Shown one piece after another: positions 1,935 to 62,582 of a stretch of DNA of 64,000 nucleotides; position 1 is the stretch's first letter, and each line of letters opens with the position of its first letter. A program made the position numbers and the translations under genes. Source of the DNA: Gemmatimonadota bacterium. GTDB taxonomy: Bacteria > Gemmatimonadota > Gemmatimonadetes > Gemmatimonadales > GWC2-71-9. The stretch spans positions 101,375 to 165,374 of the forward strand of contig JAZDCZ010000324.1 of the NCBI GenBank assembly GCA_036679605.1, written 5' to 3'. The notes under the pieces are model-generated. The model saw only the letters and a program-made list of their open reading frames with translations, was not told the DNA's origin and made no database searches.

Positions 1935-2261
1935 ATGCCAGTTGTGACTAAATCGACTGGAGGCAACCGGGTAGTGGTTGCTCCTGAGGAACTCGGTCTG
2001 GATTCTCGGATGGTGTTTCGTCGCGAGGCATTAGAGGCGCTCGAGGTGATGTCGTCTGGCGCGCATGCGCTCGAGATCGATTTTTCCTCCACGCGCTCGA
2101 TGGACAGTTCCGGGCTGGGCGCACTCATTGTCGTTCAGCGGAAGGCCGCCGAATACCAAGTGTCAGTCCGACTGCGCGGACTCAGTCAGGAACTCAGATT
2201 TCTCCTCGCGTTGACTAAGTTGGAGGATCTCTTCGAGATCGATATAGCAGAAGAGGTCTAA
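1935..2261 (+). CDS. STAS-domain protein (anti-sigma factor antagonist type)
   Basis: IDFSSTRSMDSSGLGAL matches the SpoIIAA/RsbV phospho-Ser motif; C-terminal LTKLEDLFEI. Start ATG 1935 preferred over TTG 1851. Confidence 0.85.
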   Translation: MPVVTKSTGGNRVVVAPEELGLDSRMVFRREALEALEVMSSGAHALEIDFSSTRSMDSSGLGALIVVQRKAAEYQVSVRLRGLSQELRFLLALTKLEDLFEIDIAEEV

Positions 2262-11082: not shown

Positions 11083-11724
11083 TTGCGAGCCTCTCCAACT
11101 CTACGCAACTTCGGAAAAGTGCAGACCGATAGAATACACCCATCCATTCCTCTCGCCCTGCTCGAGGCTGTCCGGTTTCTAGACGGCCTGGCTCCCTCCG
11201 GCATAGGCAAGTATGGGGATGAGATTGCTTCTAATCGACTCGGTACCAATCCAACCGTAACCGCTCAAATCGAACGATACCGCCAATTGGAACGGAAGGG
11301 AGCGTACGTAGATTGCAATGATGTCGTTCAGTTGTTCGAGTTAGTGAATCGGAGGAACGACGCTGCTATGACGCTCGGTAATGCTGGACGGTGGGCGGCT
11401 CGCAGAGCAACGCGTCGAATCTCACTTACTGCTCGGGTTCTGCGGCGGGCCGTGCCCGGGCTATTCCGATCTCGTATGGGGTTCGCCGCTGCCAGAAGGC
11501 TGGCGGAGAAGGTGTTTGCAATAAAGATGGAGCAGGGCAAAGGAGGAGTAGTGGCCGTACGGTACTTCCAGTCGCATGGAGATACGTGCGAGTTTTACGG
11601 GGCCGTGCTTGCAGAGCTTATGAGGTGCTTGACCGATTTCGATGGTGCGATGTTGCACGAAGCCTGCCGCGCACGAGGAGATGATGAGTGCAGGTGGCAA
11701 ACCGCGACGGACATTAAGAGGTAA
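11083..11724 (+). CDS. Hypothetical protein with V4R-like C-terminus
   Basis: CEFYGAVL...HEACRARGDDECRW resembles the V4R Cys motif. Start uncertain. Confidence 0.6.
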   Translation: MRASPTLRNFGKVQTDRIHPSIPLALLEAVRFLDGLAPSGIGKYGDEIASNRLGTNPTVTAQIERYRQLERKGAYVDCNDVVQLFELVNRRNDAAMTLGNAGRWAARRATRRISLTARVLRRAVPGLFRSRMGFAAARRLAEKVFAIKMEQGKGGVVAVRYFQSHGDTCEFYGAVLAELMRCLTDFDGAMLHEACRARGDDECRWQTATDIKR

Positions 11725-12910: not shown

Positions 12911-13849
12911 CTAGGCAGCCAATTGCTCGGCATGATGACTGCCGGCTGTGTCGCTGGTGCCAGATGCCGTCCAGGTAAGGTGAATCAAGGCAACCCAGAG
13001 CGCGGTGCCGAAAATGACGTGCAGTGAACGCCCAAGTGCTGGAAGACCTGTCAAGACCATAATGGCCGCGACGATCACCTGGACTATCGTCAGTACGAAC
13101 GCGACTTGCGTTGCAATGCGAATTGGCGCGGGAGTAGAACTCCGCCGCGTTCGAAATGCGAGTCTCGTCATGTGGAGCAGGAGGCCGTAGGCAACCAGTC
13201 GATGGATCCAGTGAATCATTGGTAAACCACTGGCAGCTCCTGTGGGCCAGATCTGGCCACTGCAAAGTGGGAAACCTTGGCATGCGGATCCGGCTCCGGT
13301 GTTAGCGGTGACTGCACCGAGAATGAGCACGCCGGCGCCCATTGCCGCCGAGGCAATGGCCGCTCTAAGGAATTGGGTTGGCTGTGCGTCGTGGGCTTGC
13401 TCCAGCGTTGCCGCTCGAAACGCTGCAACTGAAAGCACGGCTAGCAGCGCCATGGCGTTCCCCAGGTGTGTAGCGGTCACGGCCCACGGTAAATTGTTCC
13501 ACACCGTCACCGCGCCGAGCAGTATTTGAGCGACGAGAAGTGCGCATGCGACGGTTGCCGGTCTGAGTATGCCGCCCTTGCCCCCCACTCCGGACTCCTG
13601 CCGTTGCAAGAAGGCTAAGCCTGCCAGAAGGAAGACCAGAACGCTTACTGCAGCGGCTGCTAGCCTGTGGCCCCATTCGATCATGACCTCCGCGTTGTCG
13701 AGTGGCGGGATCAAGTGACCGTTACAAAGGGGCCAATGTTCGCCGCATCCCAAGCCAGAATCTGTGATCCGGACGATGGGCGAAAGCGCGACCAAGGCAA
13801 AGGCCATGATCGCCGTCGTAATGGCAAGAGGTTTGAGAGTCTTCATCAA
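12911..13849 (-). CDS. ctaA: Heme A synthase (COX15/CtaA family)
   Basis: SGLGCGEHWPLC, EWGHR, CQGFPLC and HWIHR; multiple TM segments. Confidence 0.85.
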   Translation of the reverse strand: MMKTLKPLAITTAIMAFALVALSPIVRITDSGLGCGEHWPLCNGHLIPPLDNAEVMIEWGHRLAAAAVSVLVFLLAGLAFLQRQESGVGGKGGILRPATVACALLVAQILLGAVTVWNNLPWAVTATHLGNAMALLAVLSVAAFRAATLEQAHDAQPTQFLRAAIASAAMGAGVLILGAVTANTGAGSACQGFPLCSGQIWPTGAASGLPMIHWIHRLVAYGLLLHMTRLAFRTRRSSTPAPIRIATQVAFVLTIVQVIVAAIMVLTGLPALGRSLHVIFGTALWVALIHLTWTASGTSDTAGSHHAEQLAA

Positions 13850-19988: not shown

Positions 19989-21695
19989 ATGGCAACAGCT
20001 GCGGCTAGCAGTGAGCGCCTCGGCGATCTTCTTGTTCGTGAAGGCCTGATTACGAGAGAACAGCTCCAACAGGCGCTCACAGAGCAGAAGGGCACCGGCA
20101 TGCGCGTGGGCTACACGTTGGTGAAGCTGGGTCTTGTTGAAGAGACCGAGATCACCAAGATGTTGGCTCGCCAGTACCGCATGCCTGCTGTAGACTTGAG
20201 CCGCTTTGAGGTAGACAAGCGGATCATCAAGATGGTTCCTACCGAAGTAGCGGTGAAGCACACGGTGCTGCCGTTGAAGCGTGAAGGTCGGACGCTCACT
20301 GTGGCTATGTCCGATCCTACCAACATGAGTGTTGTAGACGACCTCAAATTCATCACGCGGTACGACATATTTCCGGTGATCGCAGGGGAGTACACGCTCA
20401 GGACAGCCATCGAGAAATACTACGAGCAGACGGACGCTCAGCTACAAAACCTTCTGAAAGATATTGAGGAAGATGAAGATCTCGAAGTAATCGAGGAAGA
20501 AGAAGACGAGGAGGCACCGACCCAGGTTGCCGACGATGCACCTGTTGTAAAGTTGATCAACGGAATCTTGACAGATGCTGTAAAGCGCGGGGCTAGCGAC
20601 ATACACGTCGAACCGTTCGAGAGCGAAATCCGAGTGCGATATCGGATCGACGGAACCCTACTCGAAGTCATGAAGCCTCCGATCAAGCTGAAAGCCGCTT
20701 TGACGAGCCGCTTGAAAATCATGTCTTCCCTCAACATTGCCGAACGGCGGGTTCCGCAAGACGGTCGGATCAAGCTAAAGATGGCAAAAAAGGTCATCGA
20801 CTTTCGTGTCTCGACACTACCAGTGATCTACGGCGAGAAAATCGTTCTACGAATCCTCGATAAGGGCAACCTTACGCTCGATTTATCCAAGTTCGGATTC
20901 GAACCGCAGGCCGAGAAAGATCTAATGACTGCCATCCTCAACCCCTACGGGATGGTGTTGGTGACTGGACCCACTGGGTCGGGAAAGACCACTACTCTCT
21001 ATTCGGCTCTGTCGCAGGTAAACCAGATAGGCGTAAATATCATGACTGCCGAGGACCCGGTGGAGTACAATATCCACGGGATCAACCAAGTCATGGTCAG
21101 AAACGATATCGGAATGACCTTTGCTGCGGCGCTGAAGGCTTTCCTGCGACAGGATCCAAACATCATTATGGTTGGTGAGATCAGAGACCTGGAAACCGGG
21201 AGCATCGCAATTAAAGCAGCACTGACTGGCCACTTGGTACTATCTACTCTGCACACCAACGATGCTCCTTCAACTATCACGCGAATGATCGATATGGGAA
21301 TTGAGGCGTTCAACGTTGCGAGTGCCGTAAATCTGATCGTGGCCCAGCGTTTGATCCGCCGTATTTGCGCTGACTGTAAGGAGGAGTATCAGTACAGTGA
21401 TGATGAACTGGATGCATTGGGTGTAGATTTGGATGAAGCAAAGGAGATTACCTTCTTCAAGGGTGCAGGGTGCGATACTTGTGACGACACTGGTTATAAG
21501 GGGCGCCAAGGACTGTACGAGGTGATGTTCATGTCACCGGCGGTGCGGCGCTTGGTTTTGAAGGGGGCCTCCACAGCAGATATCCAAGAGCAAGCGGTTT
21601 CTGACGGGATGCTTACCTTGCGGATGGATGGCATCGTCAAAGTAAAAAAGGGTGTTACGACGATAGAAGAAGTAGTGAAAGAAACGGCGGGATGA
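19989..21695 (+). CDS. pilB: Type IV pilus extension ATPase PilB
   Basis: MshEN-like N-terminus (RLGDLLVREGLIT...L..Q), ASDIH, GPTGSGKT, LRQDP, TGHLVLSTLHTND, tetracysteine motif. Confidence 0.95.
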   Translation: MATAAASSERLGDLLVREGLITREQLQQALTEQKGTGMRVGYTLVKLGLVEETEITKMLARQYRMPAVDLSRFEVDKRIIKMVPTEVAVKHTVLPLKREGRTLTVAMSDPTNMSVVDDLKFITRYDIFPVIAGEYTLRTAIEKYYEQTDAQLQNLLKDIEEDEDLEVIEEEEDEEAPTQVADDAPVVKLINGILTDAVKRGASDIHVEPFESEIRVRYRIDGTLLEVMKPPIKLKAALTSRLKIMSSLNIAERRVPQDGRIKLKMAKKVIDFRVSTLPVIYGEKIVLRILDKGNLTLDLSKFGFEPQAEKDLMTAILNPYGMVLVTGPTGSGKTTTLYSALSQVNQIGVNIMTAEDPVEYNIHGINQVMVRNDIGMTFAAALKAFLRQDPNIIMVGEIRDLETGSIAIKAALTGHLVLSTLHTNDAPSTITRMIDMGIEAFNVASAVNLIVAQRLIRRICADCKEEYQYSDDELDALGVDLDEAKEITFFKGAGCDTCDDTGYKGRQGLYEVMFMSPAVRRLVLKGASTADIQEQAVSDGMLTLRMDGIVKVKKGVTTIEEVVKETAG

Positions 21696-54020: not shown

Positions 54021-55552
54021 GTACGACCGTTCTCATATCAATGGACGATCTCGAAGCGGCGGTTCGCGCAAACGCCCAACTCGAGGAAGTCGGTTTTGAC
54101 ACAGTGCTGGTGTCGTCGGTGGATGACGTCTCGGGTGTGTTACGGAAATCGGAACCCGACGTAGTGGTCTTGACCGGCGCCCTTCAGGAGCACACCGCAA
54201 AAAAACTGATTGGTCTAGCGCGCGATCGTTCGATCTCGACCCTCGGTCTTATTGAGGCGCCGATAACAGATCCCGAAACTTTGGCTGGGCGTTTGGGTCT
54301 CACAGCCTGGCTCATGAAGCCTGTTGATGCATCCGAAGTCGCAGCAGTTACTCAACGACTTGTCGAGCGGAGAAGGTTGCAGCGGCGTACCGGAATTTCT
54401 GGAGAGAGTCCGGCGATTCAAGAAGTGCTTGTGAAGATCGAGCAGATGGCTCCGGTCAAGAGCAACGTGCTCGTGGAAGGCGAATCGGGCACCGGGAAGG
54501 AACTCGTTGCCCACGCGATTCATGACCTCTCGCCGCGGAGGGACGGACCGTTTATCGCTGTTAGCTGCGCAGCGCTTCCTGAAACGCTACTGGAGTCGGA
54601 GTTGTTTGGACACGAGAAGGGTGCATTTACAGGTGCAGCGGAGCGCAGACTAGGGCGGTTCGAGCTAGCACATGGTGGCACACTCTTCTTGGATGAAGTC
54701 GGCGAAATGCCAGTTGCAACGCAGGTTAAACTGCTTCGAGTACTGGAGAATCATGCATTCTTCAGAGTAGGCGGTACCGACTCGATACGAGTTGACGTAC
54801 GTGTGGTTGCCGCCACGAACCGCTCTCTCAAGGAGTTGGTGGCGCTACGGCAATTCCGCGATGACCTGTATTACAGGCTGAATGTGCTGTCGATTTACCT
54901 CCCGCCCCTAAGGGAACGAAAATCCGATATTCGCATTCTAGTCAAACGCTTCGTAGAAGAGCTTAGCGAGGAGCACGGTAGATCGTTCTCCGGAATTTCT
55001 CCTGAGGCAATGGAAGTTCTGGTAAATGCGGACTGGCCCGGCAATATCCGGCAACTCAGAAACCTCATCGATTCCATGGTTGTGCTCGCACACGGCAGGG
55101 AAGTTCGTGCCAGTGATATCCCGACGGATATTCGAGAGGGTGGCTCGAGATTGCTACCGGTGCACCTTCCGCATCAAGCGGTGGACGTTCAAGGCAAAGA
55201 ATTGGAATTCATATTCCGAACCCTCGTGGAGTTGAAGCTACAGGTGGAAGACTTGCGTCGGCGCATGGATGACGTTCCTCAGCGCGTGGAAGTCATCGAC
55301 GTGGGTCGTGTTGCTCCGGCGGAGTATGAAGAGCTAACCCGTGACACCAGTGAGTCGTCCGATGAAACGGAGCCAAAGGACGATGATACCCAGGTCGTCT
55401 ATCGCCCCGGAATGAACATGGCGGAAGTCGAACGCGCTGCGATCAATGCAGCCTTACGGGAAACTGGTGGCAACAGACGTCGCGCAGCAGAAAAACTCGG
55501 CATTGGCGAACGCACGCTTTATAGAAAAATCAAGGACTATCGGCTGGTCTGA
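54017..55552 (+). CDS. Sigma54 enhancer-binding protein with a degenerate receiver domain
   Basis: [22 protein letters not shown] and HTH; the receiver reads PDVVVLT at the phospho-Asp position. Confidence 0.88.
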
Positions 55553-57303
55553 GGAATTCCGACCAGTTCGGTCAACTCGAAGTTCAGTTGAATGATGTCG
55601 CCGGCGCCCAGCTGAGTCGTGGTGGCGACGCCGGACCACCCGGGCAGCCTAACCTGCACCGTTACCACTTGCCTTTGTGGCACCCCGCAAGCGGCGTAGT
55701 AGCCGGCCCAGTCAGACATCGCCCAAATCTCCACAAGCTTACCCGGAGCTTTGCGAGTACCGGGGAGTCGTGCGGACAGCGTTATTTCTGCCTCTCTGAG
55801 CGCCTTGCCGCTTGCAGCGTCGCGAACGAATCCGGACACCATACCCACGCTGTCAGCTATCGTGGACGATGGGCACAATCGCGACCAAACAGCACGTGCC
55901 GATGGTATGGCGATTCCAACCGTCGCAGTACGCCCCAATTCGAGAGTGGCCTTTTGCCTGGGAGGTACAAAGCCAAGACTGTCGAGAAATTCGCGGGGGA
56001 AAGATATCTCGTAAGTGTCTTCAGCTAGTCCATGCAGAAAGAAGCGCCCGCTACTATCGGTGCGCGCCCGGTATCCAGTTCCTAACAGAATGACAGTTAC
56101 ACCGGCCAACGGTTCTGCGGTTTCCATATCGACGACTTTGCCGATCAGAGATGTTGCCAAACCACGTTGGAGCAATGTGCCGTCGAGTGCATGAATCTCG
56201 CTGACCCAACCACCCATTTCCTTTACCGCCGCGAGGTAGGGCTCGGAAGTAAGGTCGCTGAATTTGGTCTGTCGAACTCCAATAACCGGCATCCGAATCC
56301 ACCACTTGCGGACCATCCAAGGGCCGTCAGGCAATCGTTCGAACTCGACACGCCCGCCTACGTGCTCCGACTGGGTTCCCCGTGGAACGCCGGTGTAGCG
56401 GTACTCGAGGTACTGTAATCGAGCCGATTCCTGGTCGAGCCAGAGAACTCCTTCGATGTCCGGCACCTTCCGTCCCCTGATGGGCTTGAACGCCAACCCA
56501 ATCAATCTGGCGTCTTCGTGTCTCTGTACCGAGAAGCAGTGTAGGTTCGCGAATTCGTTCGACAACAGAACGGTCGCGTCCGGTCCGTAGTAGTAGTACT
56601 CGTGTTTGCCGGTCTGCTTGATAAAGCCGGCGGCGGCCAATTCATCAGCCGGTAGAGTACGAAACGGACTCGCCCGATACATCCCCGACTGCGACCAGCG
56701 CAGACTGTCCTGGGATCTCAGCGAATGTGGGTCCAGCAGTCGCTGGTACTGAACCAATCGATGACGCAGAGTCCCTTGCTCCTCGGTCCACGCTACGGCG
56801 TCCAGAGCTTTCTGCGCTTCCTCCCACAGCGTCAGCGCTGCGATGCTCGCCTCCCGGCGCGTTCGGCAGGCCTTATCTCCTCGGATAACGAGAGTTGGGA
56901 GTGTTATTGAGATCGCTGGAATTACGAAGGTGAACTCCACGGTCTCGTCGACGGCAACATCGATGGGCTCGGAGATCTTGCTCTTTACGCCAATTACTGC
57001 GGACCTCAATCGGTACCGGCCCGCGCCGGGTGCCTCCAGGGTGAATCGTCCTCGGGGATCCGTCAGCGTTCTCGTATGCTGCAGCGAACTATTGCCCAAC
57101 AGGATCACGAATCCACCAGATATCGGGCTGCCCGTTATCTCATCGACTAGTGTCCCACTTATGGTCTGAGAAAACAGCGGACCTGCGACGAAAAACATCG
57201 CCAGCAGTGCGCTGAGGCTGACGGCCGCCATTGAGGAGGCTGGAAGCCGGATCGGTACGGTTGTTACGGTCCTCTTCTCGTCCACACCGCTATGACGCCG
57301 CAA
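55537..57303 (-). CDS. Secreted protein with several CarboxypepD_reg-like domains
   Basis: Signal peptide; three G.V.D..G.P/A...T/SD..G.F/Y repeats. True start may be ATG 57231. Confidence 0.7.
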   Translation of the reverse strand: MRRHSGVDEKRTVTTVPIRLPASSMAAVSLSALLAMFFVAGPLFSQTISGTLVDEITGSPISGGFVILLGNSSLQHTRTLTDPRGRFTLEAPGAGRYRLRSAVIGVKSKISEPIDVAVDETVEFTFVIPAISITLPTLVIRGDKACRTRREASIAALTLWEEAQKALDAVAWTEEQGTLRHRLVQYQRLLDPHSLRSQDSLRWSQSGMYRASPFRTLPADELAAAGFIKQTGKHEYYYYGPDATVLLSNEFANLHCFSVQRHEDARLIGLAFKPIRGRKVPDIEGVLWLDQESARLQYLEYRYTGVPRGTQSEHVGGRVEFERLPDGPWMVRKWWIRMPVIGVRQTKFSDLTSEPYLAAVKEMGGWVSEIHALDGTLLQRGLATSLIGKVVDMETAEPLAGVTVILLGTGYRARTDSSGRFFLHGLAEDTYEISFPREFLDSLGFVPPRQKATLELGRTATVGIAIPSARAVWSRLCPSSTIADSVGMVSGFVRDAASGKALREAEITLSARLPGTRKAPGKLVEIWAMSDWAGYYAACGVPQRQVVTVQVRLPGWSGVATTTQLGAGDIIQLNFELTELVGIPQTSR

Positions 57304-58049
57304 CCCGAGTCCATGTCGCTGAATTCAATGGGGACCTCCGACGGCCTGTATATTTCGATTCCCTCGAGATCGTGGGGGAAAAGCTCCCGATCCATACCCT
57401 CGAAGGTGTCGACTGACCCCCACTTCGCGTTGTCTACCCAGAGGCTTGGCGGGCAAGGGCTCCCCTTGATTCGAACGGTCCACCCGGCTCCCTGCTGGGG
57501 CGATCGGACAATCCGCACGCCTGCGACCAACCTAAGTAGGCTTGTAATCTGGGTGGAGGCCCGTTCTTCAATGTCCTTCCGGGTCACGAAGTGTCCCATC
57601 CCCTTCTCGACCCGGTCGTAAAAACCTCGCAATGGTCCCGGTGCATAGGGTGCAGAATCTGCAGTAACTACGACTGCCGGTAGTTCTGTGAAGGTCCATA
57701 GTTGCAGCTTGAACTGCAGACTCTGCCCCTTTTTGATTATGAAGGGGAGCGCGTTCAGAGTGTTGTATCCCTGAGCGTCGACTCGGAAACTGTAGGTGCC
57801 GGGGCTGGGTGTACGGATCGAATAGAATCCGGCAGAATCGGCGATCCCGATGCGCTTGACCTGCCCATCCTTGCTCAGGAGCACGAGAGAGGCGTCCGGA
57901 ACTGGAGCCCCGCTTGCATGATCTACTACTTGGCCCCTCACCGTCTGTGCCACTGCGGGGTGGGTCTGGATCCCGGTGAAGGTCAGCACGGCCAGAAAAG
58001 CGGCCATGGTGGCCCTAGGGTCGACATGCGAATTGATCGGTAGTCTCAT
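57264..58049 (-). CDS. Secreted CarboxypepD_reg + TonB-plug-like protein without a barrel
   Basis: Signal peptide, VRGQVVD, LPAVVVTA, GFYDR...GHFVTR..IE, LEGIEIY, CGVIAVWTR; only 261 aa. Confidence 0.72.
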   Translation of the reverse strand: MRLPINSHVDPRATMAAFLAVLTFTGIQTHPAVAQTVRGQVVDHASGAPVPDASLVLLSKDGQVKRIGIADSAGFYSIRTPSPGTYSFRVDAQGYNTLNALPFIIKKGQSLQFKLQLWTFTELPAVVVTADSAPYAPGPLRGFYDRVEKGMGHFVTRKDIEERASTQITSLLRLVAGVRIVRSPQQGAGWTVRIKGSPCPPSLWVDNAKWGSVDTFEGMDRELFPHDLEGIEIYRPSEVPIEFSDMDSGCGVIAVWTRRGP

Positions 58050-58417: not shown

Positions 58418-60136
58418 GTGCGGTTTGAGATAAACCCCGAAAAATGCGTGAGTTGCCTGGCCTGTGTGAGGGTGTGCGCGGTTCAGGCAATTGCGGTCGA
58501 TGGGCCAAACGTGCGGATCGTGGACGATGTGTGCATTCGCTCAGGAACCTGCTTGCCCGAGTGCCCTCACGACGCGATCGATGCAATTGGTGACCTAGAC
58601 CGGGCCCTGGCGCTGGCCGGGGGTGGCGAGGCGGTCTTGATCCTGGCGGTGGAATCGGCGGTCCACTTCTACCCCCAGACGCCCGAGCAGCTCGTAAACG
58701 CCTGCTACCGTGCGGGGTTCAAGGTGGTTCACCGTGGTGTGCTGGGCGATGAGCTGGTGGCGGAGGAGTACCAGAGGCTGTGGGCGGATCCCCATTGGGG
58801 GACGATGATTCGCTCGACATGCCCTGTAGTGGTGGAGCGGATTCGCACCGATTATCCGGAGTTGGTGCCCTTCCTGGCTCCGGTCCAGACGCCGCTGGCG
58901 GCCGAGGCGTTGTACCACCGGGCGCTATATGGGGAGGAAGTGCCGCTGGTCTACGCCGGTGTCTGTCTGGCCGAGGCCGAAGGTCAGCTGGACGCGACGC
59001 TGACCTTCGAGGAGCTGGAGGAATTACTGGGGCGCTGTGGGGTGGACGTGTCGGCGGAGCCCTCGTATTACGAGCGGATTCCCGAGGTTCGGGAGCGATG
59101 CTTGAGTGCGGCGGGGGGGTTACCGCTCGACCTGTTGGAGAGTGAGCATCAGGCGAGCCGGCGATTTCGCAAAGTGCGGGGGCTAGGGGGGTTGGGGGCG
59201 ATCTCACGGGCTGTGGGAGTGCACCGGATGGACCTGGGGTTCGTTGACATCCTGCCGTGTGAGGGGTGTCTCGCCCACCCGTTGATGGGTCCGCCTGAGG
59301 AGTTGTTCTGGCGCCGTAGCGTGGTGAACGACACGGAGCCGAAGCGGTGTGATACTCCGGTAACGGATTCTGGGGTGAGTGTCCAGATCGAGCGGGCGTT
59401 CCCGTTCATCCGCAACGGGCACAAGCCGAGGGCCGCCGAGTTGAAGGGAGTGTTGGAGACCATCGGCCGTGCTCCGGACGGCTCGCCGTGGGACTGCGGG
59501 GCCTGTGGATATGGCACGTGTGACGGTTTCGCTGCGGCGCTGCTGCAGGGCCGGTCCACACTGAGGCAGTGTACGCCCTATCAGGAGCGGCGCGCCGATG
59601 AGGCGGTGCGGTCGGCGGCAGTGGACGAACTGACCGGCCTAGCGACGTTTCGCATGCTGCGCTCGCGGCTGGAACAGGAAGTGGCCCGCAGCGATCGTAG
59701 TGGCGAGGAGTTCTGGGTGATCTTTGTGGACCTTGATGAATTCAAGGGCGTCAACGACGTGCATGGGCACGACGCGGGCAACAGGGTGCTGGAGGGAGTC
59801 GGTGCGATAATGCTGCACAGCGTCCGCAAGACTGACATGGCGGCCCGCTACGGCGGCGACGAATTTGTGCTGGTATTGGTGAGGACCGATGTGGAGGGTG
59901 CGCGACGAGTGGGCGAGGTAGTGCGGGAGTCGGTCGAGGCTTTGGGAGTGGCACAGGGGTTGGAAGTTGGAGAGATCGGCGCTTCGATCGGTGTAGCCTG
60001 TCACGATCCTAACGCCGAGAAGTTAGCAGACGCGTTGCGGGAGGCGGACAGAGCCATGTACCGGGCCAAGGAATTGGGTGGCAATGTGGTGGTGTTGGCG
60101 GGAGACAGAAAAGCGAATGGAAACGAGGAGCGATGA
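58418..60136 (+). CDS. Fe-S / [FeFe]-hydrogenase-like sensor fused to a diguanylate cyclase
   Basis: CVSCLACVRVC and CIRSGTCLPEC; H-domain-like RSTCP, GVC and PCEGC; DCGACGYGTC...C; DELTGL, DLDEFK.VND..GH..G, RKTD I-site, RYGGDEF. Confidence 0.85.
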   Translation: MRFEINPEKCVSCLACVRVCAVQAIAVDGPNVRIVDDVCIRSGTCLPECPHDAIDAIGDLDRALALAGGGEAVLILAVESAVHFYPQTPEQLVNACYRAGFKVVHRGVLGDELVAEEYQRLWADPHWGTMIRSTCPVVVERIRTDYPELVPFLAPVQTPLAAEALYHRALYGEEVPLVYAGVCLAEAEGQLDATLTFEELEELLGRCGVDVSAEPSYYERIPEVRERCLSAAGGLPLDLLESEHQASRRFRKVRGLGGLGAISRAVGVHRMDLGFVDILPCEGCLAHPLMGPPEELFWRRSVVNDTEPKRCDTPVTDSGVSVQIERAFPFIRNGHKPRAAELKGVLETIGRAPDGSPWDCGACGYGTCDGFAAALLQGRSTLRQCTPYQERRADEAVRSAAVDELTGLATFRMLRSRLEQEVARSDRSGEEFWVIFVDLDEFKGVNDVHGHDAGNRVLEGVGAIMLHSVRKTDMAARYGGDEFVLVLVRTDVEGARRVGEVVRESVEALGVAQGLEVGEIGASIGVACHDPNAEKLADALREADRAMYRAKELGGNVVVLAGDRKANGNEER

Positions 60137-60873
60137 GTTCTACAAAGCCAGAACCGAAGCCTGAGCCGCCCAGACCGGCGGCGAGTCGGTCCGAGGAGGA
60201 AGTTCGGAAGCCGGACCCTTGGGGGGTCAAGCGGGCTGAGAATCTGCTCCAGAGTCTGCAAGGGATACTCTCGGCGCGGGTTGTGGTCTCGCCCATCGGT
60301 GAGATAATCGAGGTGCATGTGCTCGCGAGTAGCGGCGGCGCGCCCAAGCAGGTGGTTCGCAACGTAGAGAGCGCTTTGTTGGCTCACCTCGGCATAAAGG
60401 TCGACCATCGCAAGATCAGTGTTGCACAGACGGCCGACGTCAAGCCGATAGAGGCGTTGGAGAAGGCGGCAGTGCAGCAAGCGGCGATGCGGCGCGGCGT
60501 CGTGTATCGGAAGTTGGAGCGGATTCCCGTTGGTGAACACCGCATTCGATTTGCGGTCACACTCGAGGTGAACGGACAGGATGTAGTGGCGGAGGAGGAA
60601 TCCGCCGACACCTCTCGAGCGCGCATGCAGGCTGTTGCGCGTGCAGCGGTGACTGCGCTGGACGATTCCTTGCCGACCGGCGTGTTCGAGTTAGAGGGTA
60701 TCAAGGTGATCGAGGCGTTTGACGAGGAACTCGTGGTGGCCGGGGTTCATGTGATCGAGGGTCGTCACACTCGTCTCCTGACGGGTACGGCGCCGGCGGA
60801 AGAATCGGCCGAGCAGGCGGCGGTGTTGGCGGTGCTGGACGCCACGAACAGATGGTTCCAGTCGCGCCAGTAG
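60133..60873 (+). CDS. Conserved-looking soluble hypothetical protein
   Basis: ATGA overlap with the cyclase; motifs EVHVL...PKQVVRNVESAL...DHRKISVAQ and C-terminal AVLDATNR. Confidence 0.8.
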   Translation: MSSTKPEPKPEPPRPAASRSEEEVRKPDPWGVKRAENLLQSLQGILSARVVVSPIGEIIEVHVLASSGGAPKQVVRNVESALLAHLGIKVDHRKISVAQTADVKPIEALEKAAVQQAAMRRGVVYRKLERIPVGEHRIRFAVTLEVNGQDVVAEEESADTSRARMQAVARAAVTALDDSLPTGVFELEGIKVIEAFDEELVVAGVHVIEGRHTRLLTGTAPAEESAEQAAVLAVLDATNRWFQSRQ

Positions 60874-61229: not shown

Positions 61230-62582
61230 GTGCTCAAGCAAATTTCTAAACGTGGCGCGCTTTCGGTTAACTCCTACGTTTTCCTGGTAGCGGCGATTGG
61301 GATACTTGCATTCATTGTGGCACTCAGCGTAGATCCTTCCGTCTCAGCGAACGAAGCCGTATCTGTCACGGCAGTGCTAGCCTTCTTGGCCATCGCTCTC
61401 GGACTCCAGTTGGCTGAGCATCGACTTGCTGTTGGGAAGGCGACTGGATCTATAGCGTTCATCGTTTACTTAGCGTCTGCCCTCGTCTTCGGCGCTGTTT
61501 GGTGTGCAGTCATTACTGCAGTTACTGTTGGGAGCGCCCACGCTCTTAATCGCAAAACTCCTATCAAGATCGTTTTCAACGTATCCCAACATGTGATCGC
61601 ACTCATTGCTGGCACATCGGTTTACGTGCTGCTTGGCGGTACAATACCTCTGCAATCCCTGGATTCTGCTATCATCCCCTTCTTTGGGTTTGTCGTCACT
61701 TCATTTTCGATCAACAGTACTGCCGTGAGTGGTGTCATAGCAGTTAGCGAGGGCAAGCGGTTTGCCGAAGTCTGGCTGCGCAATACCTGGGCACTTGCAG
61801 GATACGATCTTGTTGCCAGTGCGCTCGGCCTTGGCGTTGCGTGGCTATACGTTCAGTTTGGCTTTGGCGGAATCGCAGGTGTAGTCATTCCGATTCTGTT
61901 TCTTCGGCACACATTCTTGATCAACCTCCAGTTGCAGAATACAAACCGTGAACTACTTGATCTTATGGTGAAAGCGATTGAAGCACGAGATCCGTACACA
62001 AGTGGTCATTCACAAAGGGTGGCTGAATTGGCCAGGATCTTGGGGCGCGAGCTAGGCCTTGGTTTTAAGGAAGTCGAGAGGATAGCGACCGCCGCGCTCT
62101 TGCACGATGTGGGCAAGATCTATGAGGAGTTTGCGCCGCTGCTTCGAAAGGAAGGAAAGCTGACAGAACAGGAGAGCTTTGTGATGCAATCTCATCCTGC
62201 CCGAAGTGCAGAACTAGTTGGCACCATTTCCAATTTGAGGGGCGTGGTAGAAGGTTGTGTACGTCACCACCATGAGAATTACGATGGTTCGGGGTACCCC
62301 GGAGGTTTGGCAGGAGAAGATATACCCCTTGGCTCACGTATCATCATGATTGCCGATACGACCGATGCAATGACTACCGATCGTCCGTATCGAAAAGCTC
62401 TCTCGTACAAACGAGTTCAGGAAGAGCTAGACGAATGCTCTGGGAAACAGTTTGATCCGAAGCTGGTACGTGTGTTCGGTCACAGTGCTGCGGTCCGTGC
62501 GATAATGGACGAAAGGGGTAGCCAACAACCGCTGCCTTGGAGATCGGCCAAGCAGTCGCTGCGTCTACGGGCAGTAAAGTAA
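61230..62582 (+). CDS. Membrane-anchored HD-GYP cyclic-dinucleotide phosphodiesterase
   Basis: About 6-7 N-terminal TMs; EARDPYTSGHS, LHDVGK, HHENYDGSGYP, IAD..DAMTTDRPYR, QFDP. Start uncertain because there is no clear SD. Confidence 0.9.
   Translation: MLKQISKRGALSVNSYVFLVAAIGILAFIVALSVDPSVSANEAVSVTAVLAFLAIALGLQLAEHRLAVGKATGSIAFIVYLASALVFGAVWCAVITAVTVGSAHALNRKTPIKIVFNVSQHVIALIAGTSVYVLLGGTIPLQSLDSAIIPFFGFVVTSFSINSTAVSGVIAVSEGKRFAEVWLRNTWALAGYDLVASALGLGVAWLYVQFGFGGIAGVVIPILFLRHTFLINLQLQNTNRELLDLMVKAIEARDPYTSGHSQRVAELARILGRELGLGFKEVERIATAALLHDVGKIYEEFAPLLRKEGKLTEQESFVMQSHPARSAELVGTISNLRGVVEGCVRHHHENYDGSGYPGGLAGEDIPLGSRIIMIADTTDAMTTDRPYRKALSYKRVQEELDECSGKQFDPKLVRVFGHSAAVRAIMDERGSQQPLPWRSAKQSLRLRAVK

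Follow-up and report, generated by a model that had tools for sequence, protein, structure and literature searches.

What does a protein with the build of an H2-sensing [FeFe]-hydrogenase sense in an aerobic bacterium, and what does its cyclase domain make? The question is raised by a gene at positions 58418..60136 (+) of a 64,000-nucleotide stretch of DNA (the window) from a Gemmatimonadota bacterium (assembly GCA_036679605.1, contig JAZDCZ010000324.1). It is an unbroken open reading frame (ORF) that starts with GTG and encodes 572 amino acids (aa), here called the sensor-cyclase, in which a ferredoxin domain, a hydrogenase-derived domain (H-domain), an iron-sulfur (Fe-S) domain, and a GGDEF domain follow one another. 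A preliminary description, made from the sequence alone, had taken it for a degenerate sensory hydrogenase fused to an intact GGDEF domain and, in function, for a Nar1-like sensor of O2, NO, or redox state with only a [4Fe-4S] cluster in the H-domain. The reading we arrived at, and hold tentatively at slightly less than even confidence, is that the protein descends from the group C sensory hydrogenases (HydS) and works as an Fe-S/redox sensor, probably linked to O2, whose GGDEF domain would likely make 3',3'-cGAMP (cyclic GMP-AMP), alone or together with cyclic di-GMP (c-di-GMP), the more common messenger of the two.

Domain chain, ancestry, and di-iron pocket

Pfam profiles recognized the whole chain, every feature lying on the plus strand: a Fer4 pair at aa ~3 to 54 (the 2x[4Fe-4S] ferredoxin domain, 58424..58579, also evident in the ortholog alignment); Fe_hyd_lg_C (PF02906) at aa 86 to 285 (58.7 bits against a cut-off of 22.1), inside an H-domain fold that spans aa ~72 to 310 (58631..59347) in the model; the FeS domain PF04060 at aa 359 to 387 (40.4 bits against 23); and GGDEF at aa 400 to 556 (134.9 bits; domain at 59624..60091). 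The fold agrees with the profiles. In an AlphaFold model built from 98 orthologs (mean predicted local distance difference test score, 83), residues 1 to 330 superpose on CpI, DdH, and CbA5H with a Z score of ~28 and a root mean square deviation (rmsd) of 3.2 to 3.4 Å over ~327 residues. Every motif quoted in the preliminary description (CxxSxxCxxxC, RSTCP, GVCLAE, DILPCEGC, CxxCxxxxC...C, RxxD, and GGDEF) is found in the translation. The cysteines of the C-terminal Fe-S domain (59495..59572), C360-C363-C368-C385, are aligned among the orthologs and have the exact Cx2Cx4Cx16C spacing that marks HydS of groups C and D (PMC8163306).

The comparisons used 98 full-length orthologs, all distinct and with the query counted among them, drawn from 110 loci after removal of self-copies, duplicates, and three short matches, and an outgroup of 111 proteins from a representative search. 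In a quick tree of 78 rows, rooted on two group A sequences and with TmHydS, TamHydS, and Nar1 absent from it, the family nests among group C-like proteins, in a clade with HydS-GGDEF fusions (Shimodaira-Hasegawa-like approximate likelihood ratio test [SH-aLRT], 99). These nearest relatives, one of them from an actinomycete record, keep RSTCP and mostly also the P2 Lys/Glu, and the GGDEF fusion therefore predates the loss of the pocket. Domain order and tree placement agree on the group C descent suggested earlier.

The di-iron pocket itself is remodeled throughout the family. First, the P2 Lys (three positions past the Cys of that motif), the absence of which had been pointed out for this copy, occurs in 0 of 98 orthologs compared to 90 of 111 outgroup proteins; here its location is taken by Glu186 of the P2 motif GVCLAE (aa 181 to 186, with C183; 58958..58975). 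Second, the segment that bears this Lys is 8 or 9 residues long, 3 to 10 shorter than the 12 to 18 residues of the outgroup. Third, position 79 is Glu in all 98 orthologs, whereas 90 of 111 outgroup proteins have Ser (the APS motif in group C). Finally, position 287 is His in 98/98 compared to Gly in 107/111; it belongs to the invariant H287-P288 of the P3 motif DILPCEGCLAHP (with C281 and C284; 59246..59281), which includes DILPCEGC at aa 277 to 284. By comparison with CpI, we take the P2 Lys and positions 79 and 287 to anchor cyanide or to line the di-iron pocket. The CxxC spacing of P3, one residue shorter than in group A, was considered as a further sign of degeneration and rejected, being common in the group C outgroup.

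The maturases that would build an H-cluster were also looked for. The absence of hydEFG, noted earlier for the window, extends to the whole source genome, where no HydE, HydF, or HydG profile match scored over the cut-off (6.7 Mb, 96.5% complete, 6.3% contamination; a same-genus genome has 3.7 Mb; G+C content, 54 to 62%; counts over the whole source genome may take in foreign contigs). None of 61 relatives had a HydG match over the cut-off; among 401 genomes of the phylum there were 3 that did, and they do not carry the sensor-cyclase. All three have a canonical kinase-fused HydS (GPCIAKKGE) within ~4 kb of hydG, beside a group A enzyme. They serve as an internal positive control for the search and show that in this phylum a true HydS is accompanied by its maturase. 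Matches to the HydG model below the cut-off were found in two further genomes (207 and 183 bits), one of which, G162, carries a homolog of the sensor-cyclase. With the P2 Lys lost in all orthologs and no HydG over the cut-off in the carriers examined, an H-cluster is very unlikely.

The host points the same way. No catalytic [FeFe] or [NiFe] hydrogenase was found in the source genome, of which this gene is the sole PF02906 match. That the host is an aerobe is indicated by two motifs of heme-copper oxidase subunit I; the heme A synthase reported for the window is at 12911-13849 (-; COX15-CtaA, 115.7 bits). A true H2 sensor, matured by some unknown route or supplied with a scavenged cofactor, would be in keeping with the group C ancestry and domain order, with the [NiFe]-hydrogenase family matches in 18 of 36 same-family genomes, and with the many pocket changes tolerated by characterized HydS (PMC8163306, PMC10055695). 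It would have to work with its P2 Lys segment deleted, without the bridging Cys in 27 of 98 orthologs, with HydG over the cut-off in no carrier examined, and, in the source genome, with no hydrogenase to regulate; we regard it as extremely unlikely. Judging from these comparisons, we are confident that the sensor-cyclase does not sense H2, as the preliminary description had inferred. It would be a HydS-type sensor module, yet one that lacks the P2 Lys and the maturases of HydS.

The distribution is that of a vertically retained core gene and not of a decaying relic. A search of the 401 phylum genomes with the sensor profile gave matches in 154 of the 166 genomes of the same taxonomic family, in 14 of 32 from two other families of the class, in 3 of 11 from a distant family and, weakly, in 31 of 95 from a sister family; PF02906 is present in 33 of the 36 genomes examined from the same family and in 2 of the 24 taken from two other families. 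All 79 related loci with a lineage-bearing record are Gemmatimonadota, one of them recorded as "Bacterium HR33." The order hslU, argF, gcvT, mog, sigma-54 regulator, sensor-cyclase gene, and a gene for a 246-aa protein is stable, and an HD-GYP gene often comes next. In the window, two carboxypeptidase-regulatory-like/TonB-plug genes (55537-58049, -) stand between the sigma-54 regulator and the sensor-cyclase, an insertion shared by only 4 of 79 related loci. No sigma-54 consensus was found upstream of the sensor-cyclase gene in the window or in 11 loci, and an Rfam scan of the 64-kb window gave no match at gathering scores. A search of sequencing runs listed no RNA run containing the sequence; in the remaining runs listed its share was small. 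The gene is thus near-universal in an abundant soil and sediment lineage and, as the family scores above the Pfam [FeFe]-hydrogenase cut-off, it can be wrongly counted toward H2 metabolism in surveys. Literature searches gave no description of this family, most subscription papers being beyond reach; one paper found for Gemmatimonadota and [FeFe]-hydrogenase makes only a passing mention.

Iron-sulfur ligands and the candidate signal

The preliminary description had placed the sensing element at the H-cluster site (H-site). Its four cysteines, C135 of the P1 motif RSTCP (aa 132 to 136; 58811..58825), C183, C281, and C284, are all present in this copy, and the set is complete in 68 of 98 orthologs. 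At position 135 there is Cys in 71, Asp in 26, and Ser in 1 of the 98; the 26 with Asp form a clade (SH-aLRT, 99) that has lost the bridging Cys. One further ortholog lacks all four cysteines and three lack C281 only. Altogether the bridging Cys is lost in 27 of 98 and the H-site is incomplete in 30 of 98, within the same synteny. In CrHydA1 neither Asp nor Ser can stand in for the P1 Cys, while the [4Fe-4S] cluster tolerates single losses at other sites (PMC5855289), and the 26 Asp orthologs should therefore lack an H-site cluster. Their H-domain is nonetheless as conserved as that of the intact group (mean identity, 72% compared to 70%), and they keep the accessory cysteines. All eight homologs examined from two other families and among paralogs are likewise without H-site ligands. 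As to the number of losses, the full-length tree needs three changes and the H-domain tree two or three; several independent losses were considered and set aside, since the approximately unbiased test did not reject one common origin of the 20 rows without these cysteines (p 0.23).

The accessory cysteines are kept far more strictly. Ferredoxin residues C10, C16, C20, C39, C45, and C49 are found in 98/98 orthologs and C13 in 93/98; in the C-terminal domain, C363, C368, and C385 are found in 98/98 and C360 in 97/98. Ten of the twelve accessory cysteines thus stand at or near 97 to 98 of 98. The Ser in the second ferredoxin motif, CxxSxxCxxxC, is present here (S42) as described before, but the position is variable, with Cys in 72 of 98 orthologs, and S42 was rejected as a family trait.

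Because 30 of 98 orthologs do not have the full set of H-site ligands and most accessory cysteines are near-invariant, a "[4Fe-4S]-only" H-site, plausible for this copy, could not by this comparison be the essential sensor of the family, and this part of the earlier proposal is not supported. An alternative that keeps it would have the H-site cluster itself sense O2 or NO, in the manner of Nar1, and the GGDEF domain make c-di-GMP. The full ligand set of this copy and of the 68 orthologs, which come from divergent genera, would suit such a sensor, as would the destruction of Nar1 clusters by O2 (PMC12621388). It is hard to reconcile with the 30 same-synteny orthologs that lack at least one H-site ligand, the P1 Cys in 27 of them, or with the eight ligand-free homologs from other families and paralogs, and we consider it rather improbable. 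An Fe-S/redox input is moderately probable. Here O2 or redox sensing is suggested by analogy with Nar1, which has no maturases and loses its clusters to O2 within minutes (PMC12621388).

How such an input might reach the cyclase can be outlined as follows. The protein would bind three accessory clusters and, in this copy, probably a fourth at the H-site, with the H-domain now acting as a scaffold. Cluster occupancy or oxidation would alter the packing of the ferredoxin domain against the C-terminal Fe-S domain; the N- and C-terminal cluster domains of TamHydS are predicted neighbors (PMC13104023). This change in packing would shift the register of the helix that sets GGDEF dimerization, and a helix of fixed length would pass the state of the sensor on to the GGDEF domain. 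The linker of the model fits such a helix (from C385 to Asp403 of DxLT; 59573..59623): it has 18 residues in 98/98 orthologs compared to 22 in 9/9 outgroup fusions measured, a difference of about one helical turn, as is expected of a signaling helix. At the RxxD site c-di-GMP would inhibit, as in GacA, and the output would likely be cGAMP, alone or with c-di-GMP.

A different use of the H-domain would leave the clusters with a structural role, the pocket binding a small ligand or a partner and the cyclase answering to that. Residues E79, D111, E112, R132, R227, H287, R299, and R300 are invariant in orthologs with and without H-site cysteines, many noncysteine pocket and surface residues persist in homologs without any Fe-S cysteines, and one N-terminal cluster of TamHydS is structural (PMC13104023). 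A possible partner is the 246-aa protein, for which Pfam gives no family. Its gene (60133..60873, +) overlaps the sensor-cyclase gene and is adjacent to it in 75 of 77 informative loci. An N-terminal small alpha/beta domain like the C-terminal domains of CDF transporters (Z score, ~8) is predicted, followed by a domain like the regulatory domain that binds amino acids in CimA/LeuA (Z score, 9.5; rmsd, 3.1 Å; 109 residues). That Z score signifies a common fold only and names no candidate ligand; a complex prediction of the two proteins, which speaks neither for nor against a pairing, scored 0.24 compared to a mark of 0.32, and ESM Atlas matches were to unnamed Gemmatimonadota clusters only. Also, three cluster sites that are near 100% in the main family would be costly to an aerobe as pure scaffold. 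We rate a ligand- or partner-driven cyclase as unlikely.

Homologs farther out differ in what they retain. A further paralog, found in the same genus and also in another family (L124:3386-5065 [-], L140, and L141), consists of an H-domain and a GGDEF domain with the Fe-S cysteines gone, save for a remnant in L141; all three still have Tyr/Asn at the GGDEF specificity sites. In the sister family (L125, L126, and L142 to L150), stand-alone H-domain homologs have no ferredoxin, Fe-S, or GGDEF domains. Their cysteine motifs are shifted (CxCP, GxCP, and GCxC) and their tails are long, of low complexity, and Pro/Ala-rich, some with a membrane helix; often there are two per genome.

The cyclase and its putative product

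The GGDEF domain, called intact before, is so in its catalytic motif (GGDEF, aa 479 to 483) and I-site (RKTD, aa 470 to 473). GGDEF, D438, D440, N446, D447, H451, and K551 are invariant in 98/98 orthologs, the central Asp included, and so is the I-site. The description does not hold for the two specificity positions, where the canonical guanine Watson-Crick Asp and the cross-dimer Arg are absent and Asn/Ser and Tyr/Phe are found instead. At position 455 (N455; 59780-59782), 94 of the 98 have Asn and the other 4 have Ser; position 411 (F411; 59648-59650) is Tyr in 49 and Phe in 42 (91/98) and Arg in none.

The best PDB sequence match of the domain is GacA (6D9M; 131.5 bits, the next being 107.1), with which F411 aligns at Tyr304 and N455 at Ser348. 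These two positions set the specificity of the Hypr enzymes, the Ser-type members of which require a central-Asp GGDEF; the residues given are Ser/Thr at 348 and non-Arg (Tyr, Ser, Ala, or Gln) at 304, Phe not being listed (PMC6456294). The domain would thus resemble Hypr domains and differ from them in having Asn in place of Ser/Thr. Ser and Asn interchange, both within the family and in a second Y-bearing GGDEF pair, 56% identical, of which one genome has the Ser form and another the Asn form. The canonical Asp is kept in 7 of 8 readable Lys-type outgroup fusions, which suggests that the change in specificity came with the remodeling of the sensor. The other four GGDEF domains of the source genome also have Asp.

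Changes at such positions could also mean that the GGDEF domain is weak or dead and that the protein serves as a receptor of c-di-GMP or GTP or as a scaffold. Neither the Asn and Arg of DxLTGLxNRR nor the Asp that reads the base is kept, most canonical cyclases mutated from D to S were inactive (PMC6456294), and the I-site is invariant. The same positions, however, differ in active GacA, and the full invariance of the catalytic residues runs counter to decay, which makes a dead domain very improbable. The sensor-cyclase is, in our estimate, very probably an active cyclase; that cGAMP is among its products we would put just short of an even chance.

Riboswitches and phosphodiesterases supply some context for that product. 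GEMM-I riboswitches occur in 34 of 36 same-family genomes. Position 20 (Rfam model position 11, which we equate with position 20 of Vc2) is A in 22 and G in 22 of the 44 family switches read among the ~100 matches listed, and A in 1 of 7 switches read in the sister family. The A20 switches lie ahead of STAS and Ig-domain genes. A survey of nine A20-bearing relatives, in which 83 of 84 GGDEF matches were read, found the ortholog to be the sole intact GGDEF without Asp in six; of the remaining relatives, one carries an additional Asn/GGEEF domain, and in the two others there are more Hypr-type domains, among them the 56%-identical pair mentioned above. SMODS CD-NTases were found in none of the 36 family genomes. 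On the degradation side, RxxQ in an HD-GYP domain is the mark of a cGAMP phosphodiesterase (bioRxiv 10.1101/600031). One of the seven readable sequences among 10 HD-GYP matches in the source genome, a receiver-HD-GYP on another contig (C212:73466-74578, -, outside the window), has RxxQ and is a candidate for this activity. The RxxQ protein was found in 3/3 family genomes checked, and the closest homolog in the one genome lacking the cyclase has RxxR. The RxxQ HD-GYP here and the A20 riboswitches in relatives would fit cGAMP signaling.

A c-di-GMP output, as in the Nar1-like alternative, draws on other neighbors: the riboswitch of the source genome with G20, the RxxR of the adjacent HD-GYP, and an N-terminal motif of PilB that, by its pattern, we take to be an MshEN-like c-di-GMP-binding motif. 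The noncanonical N455 and F411 stand against it. PilB, the type IV pilus ATPase, is encoded at 19989-21695 (+), with pil clusters at ~20 to 27 kb and 35.5 to 40 kb of the window. The riboswitch (C277:10006-10093, -, outside the window) lies ahead of a PAS hybrid histidine kinase, an arrangement also found in the same-genus genome. Elsewhere in the window, a 213-aa ORF (11083-11724, +) without a Pfam match ends in a Cys/His-containing motif, presumably reminiscent of V4R domains.

Several points weigh against a redox-sensing cGAMP synthase. On the input side, the C-terminal cluster of TamHydS does not change its redox state with H2, and one of its N-terminal clusters is structural, as mentioned (PMC13104023). 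The paralogs and class-level homologs L124, L140, and L141 have also lost the ferredoxin and C-terminal cysteines, and so not every relative needs even the accessory clusters. On the output side, the characterized Hypr residue is Ser/Thr, whereas Asn is found here and in 94 of 98 orthologs, and of five canonical cyclases with the D-to-S mutation four were inactive (PMC6456294). The G20 switch is the only GEMM-I riboswitch of the source genome. No riboswitch was found by Rfam upstream of the STAS gene of the window (1935-2261, +, upstream of ccmABC), orthologs of which follow an A20 switch in several relatives. The membrane-anchored HD-GYP phosphodiesterase encoded next to the 246-aa gene (61230..62582, +), often syntenic, has the canonical substrate motif RxxR, as do 27/27 readable copies of 35. 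Genome G037 has an A20 switch yet Asp in all seven of its GGDEF domains, and G005 has an A20 switch and no ortholog that could be found in its 490-contig assembly. A20 switches can be bispecific, binding both ligands (PMC6140456). The compared genomes are kin, and co-occurrence among them is no independent evidence. Cluster binding, signal, and product are all predicted.

Wider reading and known systems

The boldest form of the proposal, which we think doubtful, is that an aerobic lineage made an H2 sensor into a maturase-free Fe-S redox/O2 sensor and in the same step acquired an Asn-type cGAMP synthase, the sole writer of a family-wide circuit with the RxxQ HD-GYP as eraser and A20 switches on STAS and surface Ig-domain genes. 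If true, bacteria would have their own counterpart of Nar1, the Hypr signature would gain a new residue, and the input of a cGAMP synthase would be defined; extant proteins would also form a series that leads from a hydrogenase to a fold free of cofactor. Should Asn support cGAMP synthesis, the Hypr search rule would widen and cGAMP signaling would extend to Gemmatimonadota. The family also bears on an open question, the function of the HydS C-terminal cluster and the signaling of HydS, as its output is joined covalently to the sensor and is easy to assay, and as there are natural variants without each cluster set.

Among known systems, the closest in build are the putative sensory hydrogenases HydS of group C (M2f, TmHydS of Thermotoga maritima; HydDB C1 to C3) and group D (M2e, TamHydS). 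They have in common with the sensor-cyclase the domain order followed by a signaling output and the lack of the proton-transfer Cys in P1, and the family nests among group C-like proteins. Unlike HydS, it has no P2 Lys, a shorter P2 segment, Glu and His in the pocket, and H-site cysteines that are often lost; it occurs without hydEFG, in an aerobic host, at a core-genome location. The HydDB subtypes are linked to kinases, chemotaxis, or phosphatases and none to a cyclase.

Nar1/CIAO3 (IOP1), a hydrogenase-like Fe-S protein of eukaryotes, offers a likeness by analogy only: its H-domain fold has neither the [2Fe]H cofactor nor maturases to build it, and its O2-labile clusters are a precedent for redox sensing. 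The tree would make the descent of the present family from group C a separate origin, although Nar1 itself is absent from that tree. Unlike Nar1, the sensor-cyclase has an extra C-terminal cluster domain, a covalently attached cyclase, and dispensable H-site ligands, and no role in Fe-S trafficking such as that of Nar1/CIAO3 is suggested for it.

The third comparison is with the Hypr synthases Geobacter GacA, Bdellovibrio Bd0367, and Myxococcus GacB. The sensor-cyclase is like them in its non-Asp residue at 348, aromatic residue at 304, central-Asp GGDEF, and RxxD I-site. The RxxQ HD-GYP and A20 GEMM-I switches co-occur in the host family, with a G20 switch in the source genome and an A20 switch but no such cyclase in G037. 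The sensor-cyclase differs in that 94 of 98 orthologs have Asn where Ser would be expected, in its Gemmatimonadota host, and in its input, which is derived from an Fe-S/hydrogenase module here compared to receiver or cAMP-binding domains in the Hypr synthases.

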